This document shows, one piece after another, positions 2,388-25,157 of a DNA stretch of 64,000 bases. Position numbers and translations under genes: made by a program. The notes under the pieces were generated by a model that saw only the letters and a list, made by a program, of their open reading frames with translations, did no database searches and had not been told where the DNA came from. Each line of letters begins with the position of its first letter. Within the stretch, counting starts at the first letter, position 1. Source of the stretch: a virus (Duplodnaviria; Heunggongvirae; Uroviricota; Caudoviricetes); IMG/VR virus record IMGVR_UViG_3300045988_006728; one strand, 5' to 3'.

Positions 2388-2464
2388 CTCTGTTTAGCTC
2401 AGCTTGGTAGAGCGTTCCGTTTGGGGCGGTAAGGCCGGAGGTTCAAGTCCTCCAACAGAGACCA
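2388..2464 (+). tRNA. tRNA-Pro (anticodon TGG)
   Basis: Acceptor ctctgtt/aacagag, D-arm gctc-agcttggta-gagc, T-arm ggagg-ttcaagt-cctcc, anticodon loop tttgggg, encoded CCA. Confidence 0.7.
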
Positions 2465-2471
2465 AATTAAT

Positions 2472-2549
2472 GTTCCAGTAGACAAAATGGTAAAGTCACC
2501 ACTCTTTCAAAGTGGATATCTGAGGGTTCAAATCCCTTCTGGAACGCCA
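2472..2549 (+). tRNA. tRNA-Glu (anticodon TTC)
   Basis: Acceptor gttccag/ctggaac, anticodon stem ccact/agtgg with loop ctttcaa, T-loop ttcaaat, CCA. Confidence 0.7.
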
Positions 2550-2556
2550 GTTTTGA

Positions 2557-2628
2557 CAGAAGACCAATTACAGCAAACTTAATCTACTCATCTGACACGA
2601 AATCGGACAAAGAAGATATTTGGTCTGG
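2557..2628 (+). ncRNA. Structured inter-tRNA element, unit 1 (A box CAGAAGACC ... B box GGTCTGG); candidate Y RNA-like stem-loop
   Basis: AGACC of the A box pairs with GGTCT of the B box; conserved TaCAGCAA follows the A box; same framing repeated at three other sites. Confidence 0.35.
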
Positions 2629-2639
2629 TCATTGAGAAT

Positions 2640-2716
2640 TGCGGGTATAGAGAAAGGGCGTCTCACATGTCTCATTAGCATGGTATCGGCAGGTTCGACT
2701 CCTGCACCCGCCTCCA
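2640..2716 (+). tRNA. tRNA-Met (anticodon CAT)
   Basis: Anticodon stem catgt/gcatg with loop ctcatta, T-arm gcagg-ttcgact-cctgc, CCA; first acceptor pair mismatched and position 37 is T. Confidence 0.55.
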
Positions 2717-2722
2717 ATTTTG

Positions 2723-2782
2723 CAGAAGACCGTATTCAGCAACAAAATACTTTTTGCGGATAAAAGAAAAAACACGGTCTGG
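2723..2782 (+). ncRNA. Structured inter-tRNA element, unit 2 (A/B box framed)
   Basis: CAGAAGACCgtaTtCAGCAA at 2723 and GGTCTGG at 2776; the inner helix shows compensatory changes relative to unit 1. Confidence 0.35.
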
Positions 2783-2793
2783 CAATGTATTAA

Positions 2794-2870
2794 GGTTAGG
2801 AAGCACATAAGGTATGTGCGGTCGCCTGTTAAGCGAATGGCACAGGGTTCGAATCCCTGACTAACCGCCA
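2794..2870 (+). tRNA. tRNA-Asn (anticodon GTT)
   Basis: Anticodon loop ctgttaa, T-arm caggg-ttcgaat-ccctg, acceptor 3' strand actaacc, CCA. Confidence 0.65.
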
Positions 2871-2879
2871 AATTTAAAT

Positions 2880-2967
2880 GTGTCGTTATCCCGTAGATGG
2901 TAGCGGTGGGGACTGTAAATCCCTTGTCATTGAGACTCGGTAGGTTCGACTCCTACACGGCACACCA
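2880..2967 (+). tRNA. tRNA-Tyr (anticodon GTA), class II with long variable arm
   Basis: 88 nt; anticodon stem gggga/tccct with loop ctgtaaa; T-arm gtagg-ttcgact-cctac; CCA. Confidence 0.65.
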
Positions 2968-2972
2968 ATAAA

Positions 2973-3050
2973 GGTTATGTAGTTTAATTTGGTTAAAATA
3001 CTCCCCTGTCACGGGAGATGATGAGGGTTCAAATCCCTTCGTAACCGCCA
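2973..3050 (+). tRNA. tRNA-Asp (anticodon GTC)
   Basis: Anticodon stem ctccc/gggag with loop ctgtcac; T-loop ttcaaat; CCA. Confidence 0.65.
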
Positions 3051-3111
3051 ATTTTGAGAGGGCTATTTAGCCCCTCCCTTAAAGGGTTCTTACGAGTATC
3101 CTTTAAAGGAG

Positions 3112-3184
3112 CAGAAGACCAAATACAGCAAGAACGTATGAAATTTCAAGCCAATTTAATTTTGAAAATTTAAACTTGGTCTGG
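3112..3184 (+). ncRNA. Structured inter-tRNA element, unit 3a (A/B box framed)
   Basis: CAGAAGACCaaaTaCAGCAA at 3112 and GGTCTGG at 3178. Confidence 0.35.
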
Positions 3185-3197
3185 CTCAACAAATTTA

Positions 3198-3329
3198 CAG
3201 AAGACCGTTTACAGCAAAACTTAAACAATCTATTTCTCCGGTAAAGAAAAGGCGAAGGTTCGATTCCTTCACTCGGCAGATGTCGAGTTGGTGTAATGGT
3301 AGCACTTAAGATGATAAACAACGGTCTGG
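3198..3329 (+). ncRNA. Structured element, unit 3b, with internal tRNA-mimic domain; candidate YrlA-like Y RNA
   Basis: A box at 3198 and B box at 3323 frame a T-arm (gaagg-ttcgatt-ccttc, 3254-3270), a 7-bp acceptor-like helix closed by a 4-nt loop (actcggc-agat-gtcgagt, 3271-3288) and a D-arm (gtg-taatggtag-cac); there is no anticodon arm. Confidence 0.4.
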
Positions 3330-3330
3330 T

Positions 3331-3474
3331 AATTATCTTTGTAGATAAGTTATTAAGCTTACCTGTGAGTATGCGACCACAAAGGGTGAAAGGGTAAATT
3401 CTAGATTTAAACCCAAAAAGGCACATCGCTACAGACCTTAAGCAAGTCTGGGTAGCTTATCTACAAAGATAATT
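3331..3474 (+). repeat. Perfect 19-bp inverted repeat (AATTATCTTTGTAGATAAG) flanking a 106-bp structured segment
   Basis: 3331-3349 is the exact reverse complement of 3456-3474; the interior holds further hairpins (cagac-N8-gtctg); ends 4 nt before tRNA-Lys. Confidence 0.6.
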
Positions 3475-3478
3475 TAAT

Positions 3479-3554
3479 GGAAGTGTAGCAGAATGGTGAT
3501 GCGGCAGACTTTTAATCTGACAGGCGATGGGTTCGAATCCCTCCACTTCTACCA
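3479..3554 (+). tRNA. tRNA-Lys (anticodon TTT)
   Basis: Anticodon loop cttttaa, D-loop aatggtga, T-loop ttcgaat, acceptor ggaagtg/cacttct, CCA; paralog of the tRNA at 5201. Confidence 0.7.
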
Positions 3555-3558
3555 ATAT

Positions 3559-3635
3559 GGTTCAGTCGCAGATAAGGTAATGCAGGGGTCTCATAAGCCC
3601 TATGAATGTGGGTTCGATTCCCATCTGAACCTCCA
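3559..3635 (+). tRNA. tRNA with anticodon CAT (Met, fMet or Ile2)
   Basis: Perfect acceptor ggttcag/ctgaacc, anticodon loop ctcataa, T-loop ttcgatt, CCA. Confidence 0.7.
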
Positions 3636-3636
3636 A

Positions 3637-3712
3637 GCTGGTATAGTTAAGAAGGTTATAACACTCCCCTGATAAGGGAACATCGGTGGTTCGATTCCAC
3701 CTACCAGTACCA
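3637..3712 (+). tRNA. tRNA-Ile (anticodon GAT)
   Basis: Anticodon loop ctgataa, T-arm ggtgg-ttcgatt-ccacc, CCA. Confidence 0.7.
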
Positions 3713-3723
3713 ATTTCAATAAA

Positions 3724-3759
3724 GTTGTTGACATTGAGATGTGACTACTTTATAGTAAC
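3724..3759 (+). promoter_or_regulatory. Sigma70-like promoter (TTGACA-17-TATAGT)
   Basis: Strong -35/-10 match; followed by about 230 nt of structured non-coding sequence before tRNA-Arg. Confidence 0.5.
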
Positions 3760-3987
3760 CTTAGTTTTCGTTGCGTAGCGTCTATTTTGCAAATTTAAAA
3801 TAAATGCAAACGACAATGTTTTTCTGGCAGTAGCTTGATAGGCTAAACACCAGTGAGGTCTTCCAATCCCTCATCAAAGAATTTGGCGTACTCGCCCACG
3901 GTATGATTAATAATGTGGGCAACACTCTAAAGGGTATCCCTTATGGGTCTTGGCTTAAATGCAATAAGTACCCTTTAAAATGTTAAT

Positions 3988-4064
3988 GCACCCTTAGTTC
4001 AATTGGATAGAGCAACGGTCTTCTAAATCGTTAGTTACAGGTTCGAATCCTGTAGGGTGTGCCA
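3988..4064 (+). tRNA. tRNA-Arg (anticodon TCT)
   Basis: Anticodon stem acggt/atcgt with loop cttctaa; T-loop ttcgaat; acceptor gcaccct/agggtgt; CCA. Confidence 0.7.
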
Positions 4065-4207
4065 ATTTAGTTAGCAGATTGCTTAGACGACCTTATCGGG
4101 TCTCCGTGTAAGGAGGTGGTCTGTATCTCATGTTTTCCAGAACATGTAAATAATCTGAGAAGGTGCTTTACAGTGTTGAGATAATACGGTAAGCTTCGAA
4201 TTATAGT

Positions 4208-4290
4208 GTGGGACGATGTTAAGACTCTAAGGCATGAGCAACGGCCTCCAAAACCGTTTCAAAGTGGTTCAACTCCTCCGTCCCATGCCA
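4208..4290 (+). tRNA. Atypical tRNA-like gene, anticodon loop ctCCAaa (Trp?), 8-bp acceptor helix
   Basis: 8-bp helix gtgggacg/cgtcccat, discriminator G, CCA and T-loop ttcaact are present, but the D-region is about 8 nt too long for a canonical fold. Confidence 0.35.
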
Positions 4291-4303
4291 AAGTCTTATT
4301 AGG

Positions 4304-4393
4304 GGTAGGTAGCGGCTAATGGTAGCCAAACTGTCTTGAAAACAGTTGCCACTGTAGAGATACGGTGAGGGTTCGACTCCTTTACTTACCGCC
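4304..4393 (+). tRNA. tRNA-Ser (anticodon TGA), class II
   Basis: 90 nt; anticodon stem actgt/acagt with loop cttgaaa; long variable arm; T-loop ttcgact; discriminator G; only CC of CCA encoded. Confidence 0.65.
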
Positions 4394-4662
4394 TAATAAG
4401 ATTTAAAGCCAAGCTTCATTCGGATGTTGCTTTGGTATCCCTCGTGTATTGTCGTACACGCACAGTAAAGCACCTAGTAGGTGTCACGGAGAAGAGATAA
4501 TATCAAGCTCTCCAAAGGTTCTAGTCACCGGATTAAACAAGACTATGCAAAGACCTTTTTAGGTCTTTTTAGAGGGCTTCTAAGGTTATTACAGCTTGTT
4601 GTGGAACCTTGTTGCTTAGGTTCTTAGAAGTTCTCTAAAAAGATTTAATGGGAGATTGACAT

Positions 4663-5115
4663 ATGGCACGTAGCAGTTTGACTAAAGATATTCTTGAACC
4701 TTTAGTAAAGGGTTCAGTATCATTCAGAGAAGTGCTTATAAAGCTTGGGAGAAAACCATCAGGTGGTTCTCAGTCACATCTAAAGCGTGTTATAGAGAAG
4801 TTTGAAATAGACACTTCTCATTTCCTCGGACAAAAGGCTGGTAAGATTAAAACTGTACCAAAAAGAAAGCCTGAAGAAATCTTAATTCTACGTGAATCTG
4901 GTGAAAGAGCAAGGTCTTCACAACTAAGAAGAGCTTTAATAGCATCTGGTATCGAATACAAATGCTCTAAATGCGGTCAGTTACCGGAGTGGTTGGGCAA
5001 CCCTCTAACTCTTGATGTTGACCACATTAATGAGAACTGGTTAGATGATAGAAAAGAGAATCTTCGGTTCTTATGTCCAAATTGCCACAGTCAATTCTCA
5101 AGGCATTTGATTTAA
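4663..5115 (+). CDS. HNH homing endonuclease inside the tRNA array
   Basis: 150-aa ORF with C-terminal HNH signature DVDHINENW...RFLCPNCHSQ; stop codon lies 2 nt before the next tRNA. Confidence 0.7.
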   Translation: MARSSLTKDILEPLVKGSVSFREVLIKLGRKPSGGSQSHLKRVIEKFEIDTSHFLGQKAGKIKTVPKRKPEEILILRESGERARSSQLRRALIASGIEYKCSKCGQLPEWLGNPLTLDVDHINENWLDDRKENLRFLCPNCHSQFSRHLI

Positions 5116-5116
5116 T

Positions 5117-5193
5117 GCACCTATAGCCCAACTGGTAGAGGCAGCAGACTTAGAATCTGCTCAGTGTGAGTTCGAATCTCTCTAGGTGTACCA
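5117..5193 (+). tRNA. tRNA with anticodon TAG (decodes Leu CUA) but class I, short-variable-arm fold
   Basis: Acceptor gcaccta/taggtgt, anticodon stem gcaga/tctgc with loop cttagaa, T-loop ttcgaat, CCA; variable arm only 5 nt. Confidence 0.55.
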
Positions 5194-5200
5194 AATTAAT

Positions 5201-5276
5201 GCAGGTGTAGCAAAATGGTTATGCGGCTGACTCTTAATCAGTAAGACGATGGGTTCAATTCCCTCCACCTGTACCA
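5201..5276 (+). tRNA. tRNA-Lys (anticodon CTT)
   Basis: Paralog of tRNA-Lys(TTT) at 3479 with a compensatory change in the anticodon stem; loop ctcttaa; CCA. Confidence 0.65.
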
Positions 5277-5282
5277 GACATT

Positions 5283-5358
5283 GGGGATGTAGTTTACATG
5301 GTTAAAACATAAGTTTTGCAAACTTAAGTACAGGGTTCAATTCCCTGCTTCTCCACCA
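5283..5358 (+). tRNA. tRNA-Ala (anticodon TGC)
   Basis: G3-U70 wobble pair in the acceptor stem (ggggatg/cttctcc), anticodon loop tttgcaa, T-arm caggg-ttcaatt-ccctg, CCA. Confidence 0.7.
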
Positions 5359-5364
5359 ATTAGT

Positions 5365-5439
5365 GCATCCATAGTTTAAACGGGAAAATTACAGTCTTCC
5401 AAACTGAGGTTGAGGGTTCGAGTCCCTTCGGATTCTCCA
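5365..5439 (+). tRNA. tRNA-Gly (anticodon TCC), acceptor stem imperfect
   Basis: Anticodon loop cttccaa, T-arm gaggg-ttcgagt-ccctt, CCA; two mismatches in the acceptor helix. Confidence 0.5.
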
Positions 5440-14612: not shown

Positions 14613-15965
14613 ATGTGGAATCCAATTGTTAATGTAGATATTACATTGAACACCGCAGGAACTACAAGAGAAGGTTTTGGTTTGCCACTATTCTTAGCTT
14701 CAACAGATAACTTTGAAGAAAGAGTCCGTGGTTACACTTCCTTAACTGAAGTTGCTGAAGATTTCGATGAAAACTCTGCTGCATATAAGGCTGCTAAACA
14801 ACTTTGGAGTCAGACTCCTAAAGTAACTCAGCTTTATATTGGTAGACGTGCTATGCAGTACACTGTATCAATTCCTAATGCCGTTGCTGAAAGTACAGAC
14901 TACTCAATTACTGTAGCTGCTGGCGGTGGAATTTCTCAACCATATCAGTATACAGCGCAAGCTGAAGACACTGCTGAAAACGTGTTGCAACAGTTTAAAA
15001 CACAGATTGAAGCTGACCCAACAATCAAAGATAAGGTTTCTGTGAACGTAACTGGTAGCAATGGCTCTGCCACAATGATTATTACCAAAGCTGGTGATAA
15101 TGACTTTGTGAAAGTAACAACTACAGCACAGACTGTGTATATTGCAAGTACAACTGCCGATACAGCATCAACTGCTCTGGCAGCTATCGAAGCTTACTCT
15201 ACTGACTGGTATTTCATTGCAGCAGAAGACAGAACTCAACAGTTTGTCTTAGCAATGGCTTCTGAGATTCAGGCTCGCAAGAAAATCTTCTTTACAGCTA
15301 ACTCCGATGTAACAGCCCTGCAAGGTACAGAATTAGCCAGTGCAAATGATGTTCCAGCACAGCTTGCTAAGAGTATGTACACTCGTACAGTTTGCTTGTG
15401 GCATCACGCAGCAGCAGAAGACTACCCAGAGATGGCATACATTGCTTATGGTGCTCCATATGATGCAGGTTCAATTGCTTGGGGTAATGCTCAGCTAACT
15501 GGTGTAGCAGCTTCTCTACAACCATCTAATCAGAGACCTCTGACAAGTATTCAGAAGTCTGCTTTAGATGTACGTCACTGTAACTTTATTGACCTTGATG
15601 GTGGTGTTCCAGTGGTTCGTAGAGGGATTACTTCTGGTGGGGAATGGATTGATATCGTCCGTGGCGTTGACTGGTTAGAATCAGACCTGAAAACTTCTCT
15701 GAGAGACTTGCTAATTAACCAGAAGGGTGGTAAGATTACTTATGATGATACTGGTATTACCCGTATTCGTCAAGTCATTGAAACCTCTCTACAAAGAGCA
15801 GTCAACAGAAACTTCCTGTCATCTTACACAGTTAATGTTCCTAAAGCCTCTCAAGTTGCTTTGGCAGACAAGAAAGCTCGTATCCTGAAAGATGTTACCT
15901 TCGCAGGTATCTTAGCAGGGGCTATCTTGGATGTTGACTTGAAAGGTACAGTGGCTTACGAATAA
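14613..15965 (+). CDS. Tail sheath protein (putative)
   Basis: 450-aa ORF directly before a 148-aa tube-sized gene; a P2-like baseplate set downstream supports a contractile tail. Confidence 0.5.
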   Translation: MWNPIVNVDITLNTAGTTREGFGLPLFLASTDNFEERVRGYTSLTEVAEDFDENSAAYKAAKQLWSQTPKVTQLYIGRRAMQYTVSIPNAVAESTDYSITVAAGGGISQPYQYTAQAEDTAENVLQQFKTQIEADPTIKDKVSVNVTGSNGSATMIITKAGDNDFVKVTTTAQTVYIASTTADTASTALAAIEAYSTDWYFIAAEDRTQQFVLAMASEIQARKKIFFTANSDVTALQGTELASANDVPAQLAKSMYTRTVCLWHHAAAEDYPEMAYIAYGAPYDAGSIAWGNAQLTGVAASLQPSNQRPLTSIQKSALDVRHCNFIDLDGGVPVVRRGITSGGEWIDIVRGVDWLESDLKTSLRDLLINQKGGKITYDDTGITRIRQVIETSLQRAVNRNFLSSYTVNVPKASQVALADKKARILKDVTFAGILAGAILDVDLKGTVAYE

Positions 15966-15980
15966 TAGAGGTAAATTGGA

Positions 15981-16427
15981 ATGGCTATGTATCAGCAATA
16001 TTCCCCTAAAGACGTTGTATGTAGCTGGAATGGTATTGCCATTGAAGGCTTTGCCCCAGATTCATTCTTGCGTCTACAGAGAACATCACCGCTTGTGACA
16101 CCAGTTGTTGGTGCAGGTGGTCAAGTTGCTCTGACAAGAAATGCAGACAAGACAGGTACTATTGAGATTGAGTTAATGCAGACTTCTCTCTCTAACCAGA
16201 TGCTTTCTGCAATTCAAGCTAAACAAGACAATATGGAACTTGAAGAAGATATCTCTTCTAACTTCGTAATCTACGACCCATCAGGCTCTGTTCTGGCAAC
16301 TGGTATTAATGCTTGGTTGCAGGAATTACCACAGATTGAACTTGGTCGTGACCAGAACTCTAAAACTTGGATTTTTGGTTGTGAGAAGCTAGACTACACT
16401 TCTACAATTCCAGCGTCAAGTGTTTAA
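15981..16427 (+). CDS. Tail tube protein (putative)
   Basis: 148-aa ORF followed by a rho-independent terminator. Confidence 0.5.
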   Translation: MAMYQQYSPKDVVCSWNGIAIEGFAPDSFLRLQRTSPLVTPVVGAGGQVALTRNADKTGTIEIELMQTSLSNQMLSAIQAKQDNMELEEDISSNFVIYDPSGSVLATGINAWLQELPQIELGRDQNSKTWIFGCEKLDYTSTIPASSV

Positions 16428-16438
16428 TAAATCCTATA

Positions 16439-16476
16439 AGGGGGAGACTTTAAAAGGTCTTCCCCTTTTTTGTTTC
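16439..16476 (+). terminator. Rho-independent terminator
   Basis: ggggagac-tttaaaag-gtcttcccc hairpin followed by tttttt. Confidence 0.6.
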
Positions 16477-16500
16477 TTTTAAAAGTATTAAGGAATCACA

Positions 16501-16899
16501 ATGAAAACAGAATCTAGAGTAATTAATGGTAAGAAAGTAAATATCGTTCTGCTTGGGGCAAGAGATGGTATTAAGATGTCTATGAAGTTGGGTAAAATTG
16601 TTGTTCCAACTTTTGCACAGATGCTGTCAAGTCTGACTGACAAGGGTAAGAAAGAAGCTCCAATGGTTCCATTTAAAGAACTTGTTGAAGCTTGTTTTGA
16701 CAGAATTGAAGAAATTAACCTTGAAGAAATGGCTACCCTGTTATTTCAAGGAGCAACTGTTGATGACTTCCCACTTAATATTGATACATACTTCCAAGCA
16801 AACTATGGTGAATTTATTGATTACTTAGCATTTGCGCTGGAGGCAAACTTCGGAAGTTTTTTCGAAGCAAGCATTTTCAAAAGCCTAACTTCTCAGTAA
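16501..16899 (+). CDS. Tail assembly chaperone (G-like), upstream frame
   Basis: 132-aa ORF immediately before the tape measure gene; contains the slippery heptamer near its 3' end. Confidence 0.6.
   Translation: MKTESRVINGKKVNIVLLGARDGIKMSMKLGKIVVPTFAQMLSSLTDKGKKEAPMVPFKELVEACFDRIEEINLEEMATLLFQGATVDDFPLNIDTYFQANYGEFIDYLAFALEANFGSFFEASIFKSLTSQ
16857..16863 (+). promoter_or_regulatory. Programmed -1 ribosomal frameshift slippery site T_TTT_TTC
   Basis: Heptamer sits in the zero frame (agt ttt ttc) 12 codons before the stop; a -1 shift reads into the 16902-17141 ORF. Confidence 0.6.
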
Positions 16900-16901
16900 A
16901 C

Positions 16902-17140
16902 ATGGGTAACACTCTACAGACACCACTGACTGATGCTGCTGTAGAGGCAACCTATGAAGAAGCAGACGAGATGAAATTTGTGCTTGCTATTTATGGTATG
17001 GAAGGGTGTAAAGAAACACTTGACCAACTCTTTGCTATGACATTCTCTGATTTATTATCATTGAGACAATTTCTTGAAATTCAGAGGTCGTATAAAGAGG
17101 AAATTGCTTACAACGAACTTAGAAGAGCAGGAAAAATGTA

Positions 17141-17141
<1 letters not shown>
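16902..17141 (+). CDS. Tail assembly chaperone extension (GT-like), reached by -1 frameshift
   Basis: 79-aa ORF in the -1 frame relative to 16501-16899; ends at the tape measure start. Confidence 0.55.

Positions 17142-25157
<8,016 letters not shown>

Follow-up and report, generated by a model that had tools for sequence, protein, structure and literature searches.

Xu, Hendrix and Duda are said to have described, in 2004, a conserved -1 frameshift of the long-tailed dsDNA phages. In phage lambda the G/GT shift takes place on the heptamer G_GGA_AAG and works without a downstream structure, and in phage P2 the -1 shift takes place on a T-rich heptamer. The lambda protein gpG and the rare fusion gpGT (present at about 30:1) both attach to the tape measure protein, while the major tail protein is recruited through the T domain, and both chaperones are absent from the virion (PMC5009743). 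The efficiency of the P2 frameshift is 2- to 3-fold above that of lambda (PMC5009743). Closer to the locus described here, a frameshift is reported in the genome announcements of the Felix O1-like Citrobacter phages Moogle, Michonne and Mijalis, where the published statements are annotation calls and not experiments, and a joined CDS is annotated in the RefSeq record of phage Mordin (NC_041977). No protein-level evidence for this phage group (mass spectrometry, western blot or reporter assay) was found in the literature searched.

The window, which is the whole 64,000-nucleotide stretch of DNA analysed here, is by sequence comparison a Felixounavirus genome (subfamily Ounavirinae), i.e. that of a Felix O1-like myophage. 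Region 14600-19400 matches Escherichia phage ECML-1 over its full length at 98.8% identity, and about 250 other Felix O1-like myophages match the same region at a coverage of at least 80%. Genes of the tail module follow one another on the + strand in the order sheath, tube, zero-frame chaperone (G), -1 frame extension (T) and tape measure, T being in the -1 frame relative to G. The features of the locus are the following.

14613..15965, + strand: tail sheath gene, which starts the tail module (phrog_205, E=1.6e-123; Pfam DUF3383)
15981..16427, + strand: tail tube / virion structural protein gene (Pfam KPP10_Orf10, E=3.2e-7; phrog_280)
16501..16899, + strand: zero-frame chaperone gene (G), 132 aa (Pfam PF21822 Phage_TAC_15, E=1.7e-19; phrog_1613, E=2.9e-48)
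16839..16843, + strand: internal Shine-Dalgarno (SD)-like GGAGG, putative 5' stimulator, 13 nt 5' of the heptamer
16857..16863, + strand: slippery heptamer T_TTT_TTC in the zero frame (P-site UUU, A-site UUC), recognised by position, phase and conservation
16863..17141, + strand: -1 frame extension (T part), an open frame of 92 codons plus stop (phrog_4963 tail assembly chaperone, E=2.8e-55)
join(16501..16863, 16863..17141), + strand: predicted fusion chaperone GT, 213 aa (the Mordin record, NC_041977, carries the homologous CDS as a join)
17141..19369, + strand: tape measure protein gene (Pfam TMP_3, E=2e-17; phrog_4036, 1533 bits)

A tail sheath annotation is also present in the records of phages UAB_Phi87 and Mordin. 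Assignment of 15981-16427 as the tube gene fits its placement after the sheath gene and directly 5' of the chaperone genes. The product of the zero-frame gene scores 71 bits with Phage_TAC_15, for which the curated cut-off is 22, and its second match, phrog_1613, is a tail assembly chaperone family. G has an SD of its own (AAGGA, duplex dG -6.1). The -1 extension contains the 79-aa ORF 16902-17141, which appears as a separate gene in database annotation, and the ATG of the tape measure gene overlaps the stop of the fusion (ATGTAATG). Gene order, the Phage_TAC_15 match and the in-phase heptamer thus agree with the proposal, made in an earlier sequence-only reading of this DNA, of a G/GT-type chaperone 5' of the tape measure gene. 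A PDB sequence search with the fusion returned no solved structure of a relative.

That reading had placed T_TTT_TTC in the zero frame at 16857-16863, and both coordinates and phase hold when checked on the sequence. Counted from the ORF start at 16501, a codon begins at 16858, and the heptamer is read as AGT TTT TTC (Ser-Phe-Phe). It has the X_XXY_YYZ phase, lies within the overlap of the two frames and precedes the end of G by 36 nt. The -1 frame has a stop at 16818-16820 and is open from 16821, through the ATG at 16902, up to the stop at 17139-17141, as had been claimed for a stop-free continuation into the 16902-17141 ORF. As the stop of G is at 16897-16899, the stop-free overlap of G with the -1 frame comprises 26 codons. 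The first codon after a -1 slip would be CGA at 16863 (Arg), giving the fusion junction ...ANFGSFF / RSKHFQKP... (extended as ...EANFGSFF-RSKHFQKPNFSVNMGNT...) and a fusion of 213 aa. The predicted junction peptide for a shift at the heptamer is ANFGSFFRSKHFQKPNFSVNMGNTLQTPLTD(AAVE). A secondary U_UUC site is present at 16875-16878, and a shift there is predicted to give ANFGSFFEASIFQKPNF....

Taken together with the comparisons described below, this anatomy makes it very probable that the tail assembly chaperone gene of this Felix O1-like myophage undergoes a programmed -1 ribosomal frameshift. Most ribosomes would translate 16501-16899 and release the 132-aa G. In a minority of them, the P site would hold tRNA-Phe paired with UUU 16858-60 and the A site tRNA-Phe paired with UUC 16861-63, and the two tRNAs would slip one base back to pair with UUU 16857-59 and UUU 16860-62; tRNA-Phe reads both UUU and UUC. 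Decoding would restart at CGA 16863 and run to the stop at 17139-17141, yielding the 213-aa GT. By analogy with lambda, G and GT would cover the tape measure protein, the gene of which follows directly, and the rare GT would recruit the tube protein (15981-16427) through its T part; both G and GT would be needed to assemble the tail, and neither would be expected in the virion. Because of the gene position and the family assignment, this lambda-like chaperone role is our best guess. In a measurement of all heptamers in E. coli, Sharma et al. found the H_HH.U_UU.Y class, which includes U_UU.U_UU.C, to be among the most efficient (PMC4066793). Heptamers of this class are depleted from E. coli genes and are used by IS elements (PMC4066793).

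Within the window, 72 in-frame X_XXY_YYZ heptamers are present among about 19,000 ORF codons (0.0038 per codon), so that about 0.1 slippery heptamers of any kind would be expected per 26-codon overlap. In-frame T_TTT_TTC occurs a single time among these approximately 19,000 codons, namely at this site. TTTTTTC is under-represented in the window as a whole, with 12 occurrences on both strands (2 on the + strand) against 28.6 ± 6 expected. Evidence from this single genome against a chance origin of the site is modest when any slippery heptamer is counted and stronger for this particular one, and on the whole it is moderate.

The claim that the frameshift site is conserved is well borne out, since none of the relatives examined, the most distant at a protein identity of about 25%, lacks the heptamer or the -1 extension. 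An in-frame heptamer and a long open -1 frame ending just 5' of the tape measure gene are also found in Citrobacter phage Mordin (Mooglevirus), Escherichia phage SUSP2 (Suspvirus), Yersinia phage P778, Erwinia phage phiEa21-4 (Kolesnikvirus) and Pectobacterium phage Arno162. The same arrangement is seen in the Vequintavirinae Av-05, CR3, LTH01 and phiTE, the chaperones of which are 26-30% identical to that of the window, and the heptamer is present in 10/10 phage records of the Ounavirinae and Vequintavirinae. A scan of IMG/VR for related loci gave 80 loci, all with a zero-frame heptamer (T_TTT_TTC in 73 and T_TTT_TTT in 7) and with -1 extensions of 69-123 codons. These 80 loci form 19 clusters at <50% chaperone identity. 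Contigs with 60-65% GC, in which TTT and NNT codons are disfavoured, are among those that conserve the site. When region 16430-17200 is compared with the Erwinia phages at the DNA level, only 16846-16886 aligns, a 41-nt stretch of 92.7% identity centred on the heptamer.

Part of this nucleotide conservation is driven by the protein, because the chaperone residues F120 and F121 are invariant. The IMG/VR scan was seeded with a peptide pattern that contains Phe-Phe, and the test was hence made on the codon choice, not on the residues; the criterion required a T at the end of the Ser/Cys codon before the Phe-Phe and TTT as the first Phe codon. The probability of this choice by local codon usage is 0.03-0.34 per lineage, and the product is 1.8e-16 with the 19 clusters taken as independent, which addresses the contribution of the protein under that same assumption. 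As a control for ascertainment, six Ounavirinae G proteins were cut before the Phe-Phe and the patterns YFxxNYGE and LFxGATVDD were used for the search. Five new lineages with 25-32% identity were found in this way, 5/5 of them with an in-frame T_TTT_TTT and -1 extensions of 91-98 codons. An alignment of nine truncated G proteins contained no conserved stretch usable as a search seed.

A search for a downstream stimulatory structure, which the sequence-only reading had asked for, came out negative, as neither the folding of nine lineages nor RNAalifold revealed a conserved one. In these nine lineages the folding energies of the 47 nt 3' of the heptamer do not surpass those of shuffled sequences (z from -0.24 to +1.48). 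RNAalifold on six Ounavirinae sequences gave zero consensus pairs 3' of the heptamer, and an Rfam scan of 16000-17600 run with a permissive cut-off returned a chance miRNA match alone. A hairpin at about 16901-16956 (97-nt fold, z=-2.4) was rejected as a stimulator; it starts 37 nt past the heptamer and is not conserved. As no conserved downstream structure is present, it appears to be the heptamer itself on which the shift depends.

On the 5' side, pairing of the anti-Shine-Dalgarno with the GGAGG located 13 nt 5' of the heptamer may help the shift. Duplex formation of this GGAGG with the 3' end of 16S rRNA amounts to -9.3 kcal/mol, exceeding 90% of the start-site SDs of the window, and GGAGG occurs 14 times on the + strand of the 64 kb. 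The 13-nt spacer falls inside the range of 9-14 nt between SD and shift site reported for -1 shifts (PMC5009743). The Glu codon that forms GAGG is GAG in 14/17 divergent lineages against 6.4 expected by local usage (P=1e-4; lineages not fully independent). Among the five independently found lineages ...LRENF... replaces ...LEANF..., yet AAGGAG, GGGAG or AGGGAG is present 11 nt 5' of the site in 4/5. The element is absent (GAA) in the Erwinia Kolesnikvirus, in Certrevirus CR3 and in the lineage L128. It is plausible but unproven that GGAGG 16839-16843 is a frameshift stimulator.

The Phage_TAC_15 family spans the Ounavirinae, the Vequintavirinae and many uncultured myophages, including the contigs with 60-65% GC. 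We tentatively suggest, at somewhat below even chances, that the whole family keeps one cassette, consisting of T_TTT_TTY (the invariant Phe-Phe) and an SD-like GAGG, GGAGG or AGGGAG 11-13 nt 5' of it, and that rRNA pairing on the 5' side, in the manner of dnaX, would stimulate the shift in place of a 3' structure. A family-wide SD-assisted G/GT signal was not found described in the literature searched.

A rival reading does without any recoding. In it, 16902-17141 would be a small gene in its own right, as most database records have it, and ribosomes ending at the stop of G would reinitiate on its ATG. The ATG at 16902 indeed lies only two bases past this stop (TAA AC ATG), and two separate CDSs are given in most Felixounavirus records, including that of RefSeq Felix O1. 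However, the 17 nt 5' of the ATG hold no SD, the duplex with the 16S 3' end having a dG of +0.7 kcal/mol, which is in the bottom 2% of the 65 + strand ORFs (median -5.8). Nor is the start conserved. In the -1 frame of phiEa21-4 the first start codon is the Met of ...QILEM..., some 60 codons beyond the shift site, and phiEa104 annotates a 37-aa stub alone for the second part; the Erwinia T protein is nevertheless conserved 5' of that Met, being 51% identical to that of the window along the full extension and having the motifs CKET and LRxFLE. In the Vequintavirinae the open -1 frame starts 40-60 codons ahead of the annotated downstream ORF, and no in-frame start is present at the head of T. Moreover, the 13 codons from the heptamer to ATG 16902 (RSKHFQKPNFSVN; RSKHFQKP...) are conserved as protein of the -1 frame, and an independent gene would leave the invariant synonymous choice T_TTT_TTY unexplained. 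The missing SD, the absent starts in relatives and the conserved peptide ahead of the ATG suggest that T is reached by frameshifting and not by independent initiation, which leaves a separately initiated gene very unlikely indeed.

The same fusion could in principle arise before translation, if RNA polymerase added one U on the T6 run and the resulting transcript was translated in the standard manner into GT. The site is homopolymeric (T6 here, T7-T8 in some relatives), and the GenBank record CL1, with T7 and an in-frame fused ORF, shows a tendency of the run to length errors at one stage or another. The CL1 fused ORF is probably a homopolymer sequencing error. A terminator scan also flagged 16837-16863, where the T run comes after a weak hairpin (16837-16853). 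This terminator-like candidate was rejected, as it comprises six pairs including two G-U, derives from the LEANFG codons and is not conserved in the divergent lineages, so that the upstream hairpin does not extend beyond close relatives. Efficient transcriptional slippage in bacteria usually needs runs of about nine or more, and the six T's are short for this mechanism. The SD-like element, in addition, seems to be preferentially conserved at a spacing that stimulates -1 shifts and would be irrelevant to a polymerase, and U_UU.U_UU.C is experimentally efficient as a ribosomal shift motif in E. coli (PMC4066793). We consider transcriptional slippage very unlikely. The heptamer might instead be a chance by-product of a conserved Ser-Phe-Phe beside a coincidentally open -1 frame. 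Such a view can draw on the invariance of F120/F121 and on the expectation of about 0.1 in-frame X_XXY_YYZ per overlap of this length, but in 19 + 5 divergent lineages T is without exception the last base of the codon preceding the Phe-Phe, and TTT the first Phe codon (joint probability about 2e-16), and the -1 frame is open for 69-123 codons at 85/85 loci (80 from the scan and five from the control). Comparative conservation effectively excludes chance, and this view seems to us hardly credible. The programmed -1 ribosomal frameshift remains the reading that we favour.

The frameshift is thus already known, belongs to the G/GT class and is often under-annotated. Two separate chaperone genes still stand in most records of Felixounavirus, RefSeq Felix O1 and UAB_Phi87 among them, and in the records of some relatives the second part is absent or a truncated stub. 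Mildly new are the breadth of the T_TTT_TTY cassette across the Phage_TAC_15 family and the candidate SD-like stimulator on the 5' side. The value is mainly one of annotation, as the conserved T_TTT_TTY site permits a correct joined CDS across the Ounavirinae and Vequintavirinae. The locus provides another well-conserved example of G/GT in contractile-tailed phages and leaves the current understanding unchanged. With no 3' structure and a possible SD-like element on the 5' side, it would be a clean test case for how a low level of -1 frameshifting is set.

Among bacterial genes, E. coli dnaX (A_AAA_AAG with an SD-like AGGGAG and a downstream hairpin) resembles the locus in having an SD-like element 9-14 nt 5' of its heptamer; the corresponding distances are 13 nt for the GGAGG of the window and 11 nt for AGGGAG/AAGGAG in the relatives L125-L129. 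Unlike dnaX, the window has a different heptamer and no hairpin 5-9 nt 3' of it, its shift would lengthen the protein whereas that of dnaX truncates it, and the role of the SD-like element here is one that we infer. Phage P2, with its gpE/gpE+E' pair, shares the contractile tail and the position of a chaperone pair between the tube and tape measure genes, whereas no sequence relationship of its chaperone to that of the window was detected.

The gpG/gpGT pair of lambda has the same layout of two overlapping ORFs directly 5' of the tape measure gene, with the second in the -1 frame. It likewise needs no downstream structure, and an abundant short form with a rare fusion would be expected here too. 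The locus differs from lambda in using T_TTT_TTC (Phe-Phe) in place of G_GGA_AAG, in a G protein of family PF21822 that has no detectable similarity to gpG, in belonging to a contractile-tailed myovirus and in having a candidate SD-like stimulator upstream. The nearest of the described systems is that of the Citrobacter Mooglevirus phages Moogle, Michonne, Mijalis and Mordin. They belong to another genus, and the Felixounavirus records, unlike theirs, list the two ORFs separately. Their chaperones are nevertheless direct homologues, with 70% protein identity over the fusion, the same heptamer and the same gene order, and in Mordin the heptamer and its 30-nt upstream context are identical to those of the window except for two bases.

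The slippery heptamer T_TTT_TTC (16857-16863), at which ribosomes are predicted to pass from the zero-frame tail assembly chaperone gene (G) into its -1 frame extension (T), is accompanied by a second slip site and by two hairpins around the chaperone genes. These features, together with the tRNA genes of the window, are as follows:

2388-5439, plus strand: cluster of 15 tRNA genes
16438-16467, plus strand: strong terminator-like hairpin (13 pairs, 6 of them G-C) with a T tract, followed by TTTTTGTTTCT
16875-16878: one-tRNA slip site, the tetramer U_UU.C, in A TTT TC (zero-frame ATT TTC)
16901-16956, plus strand: hairpin CAUGGGU...ACCUAUG with the inner stem CUCUACAG/CUGUAGAG

The tetramer, which is weaker than the heptamer and lies 12 nt 3' of it, falls within the block conserved among Ounavirinae. 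Phe is encoded in both frames at this position and therefore a shift at either the heptamer or the tetramer ends in the same ...FQKPNF... sequence. Further downstream, the hairpin at 16901-16956 starts at the ATG of T, 37 nt 3' of the heptamer, and contributes to the fold of 16864-16960 (z=-2.4); other genera do not conserve this hairpin. The terminator-like hairpin separates the tube gene from the chaperone gene, and a terminator is annotated at the equivalent place in the Citrobacter phage Mordin and in other records. Because of this hairpin, the chaperone and tape measure genes are probably transcribed at a lower level than the sheath and tube genes.

The tRNA cluster comprises genes for Pro, Glu, Met (two), Asn, Tyr, Asp, Lys (two), Ile, Arg, Ser, Leu, Ala and Gly. 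tRNA-Phe is absent from these 15 genes and, as far as the window goes, the shift site relies on the host tRNA-Phe. Over both strands of the whole window, TTTTTTC occurs 12 times, less than half of the 28.6 occurrences expected from dinucleotide content, and GGAGG is also depleted (41 observed, 58.6 expected). Depletion of the two strings fits a pattern in which slippery and SD-like sequences are avoided within genes.

Annotation of the region varies among database records. The Erwinia Kolesnikvirus T part is a conserved -1 frame protein of ~94 codons, left unannotated or annotated only as a 37-aa stub, and no start codon of its own is present in phiEa21-4 (locus L005, 1212-1502) or phiEa104 (locus L096, 454-744). 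'Campylobacter phage A132' (MG065664.1) contains sequence with 98.7% identity to the E. coli/Salmonella Felix O1-like module of the window, and sequence of 'Staphylococcus phage SA1' is annotated, in a note that cites this phage, as a homologue of the module; the records carrying these two host labels are likely to be mislabelled or contaminated.

In Escherichia phage CL1 (OK040806.1; locus L007, 652-700, corresponding to window 16857-16863), the shift-site run has seven T instead of six, which joins G and T in one frame, and a single 213-aa 'tape measure chaperone' is annotated. The longer run is probably a homopolymer error of sequencing or assembly; if true, the fusion would be the sole form made by this phage.

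Among the rV5-like Vequintavirinae, a joined CDS is annotated in none of the four records (Av-05, CR3, LTH01 and phiTE). The same T_TTT_TTC site is present in all of them, and 90-102 nt remain from it to the chaperone stop, so that the short form carries a tail of ~30 residues absent from the fusion.
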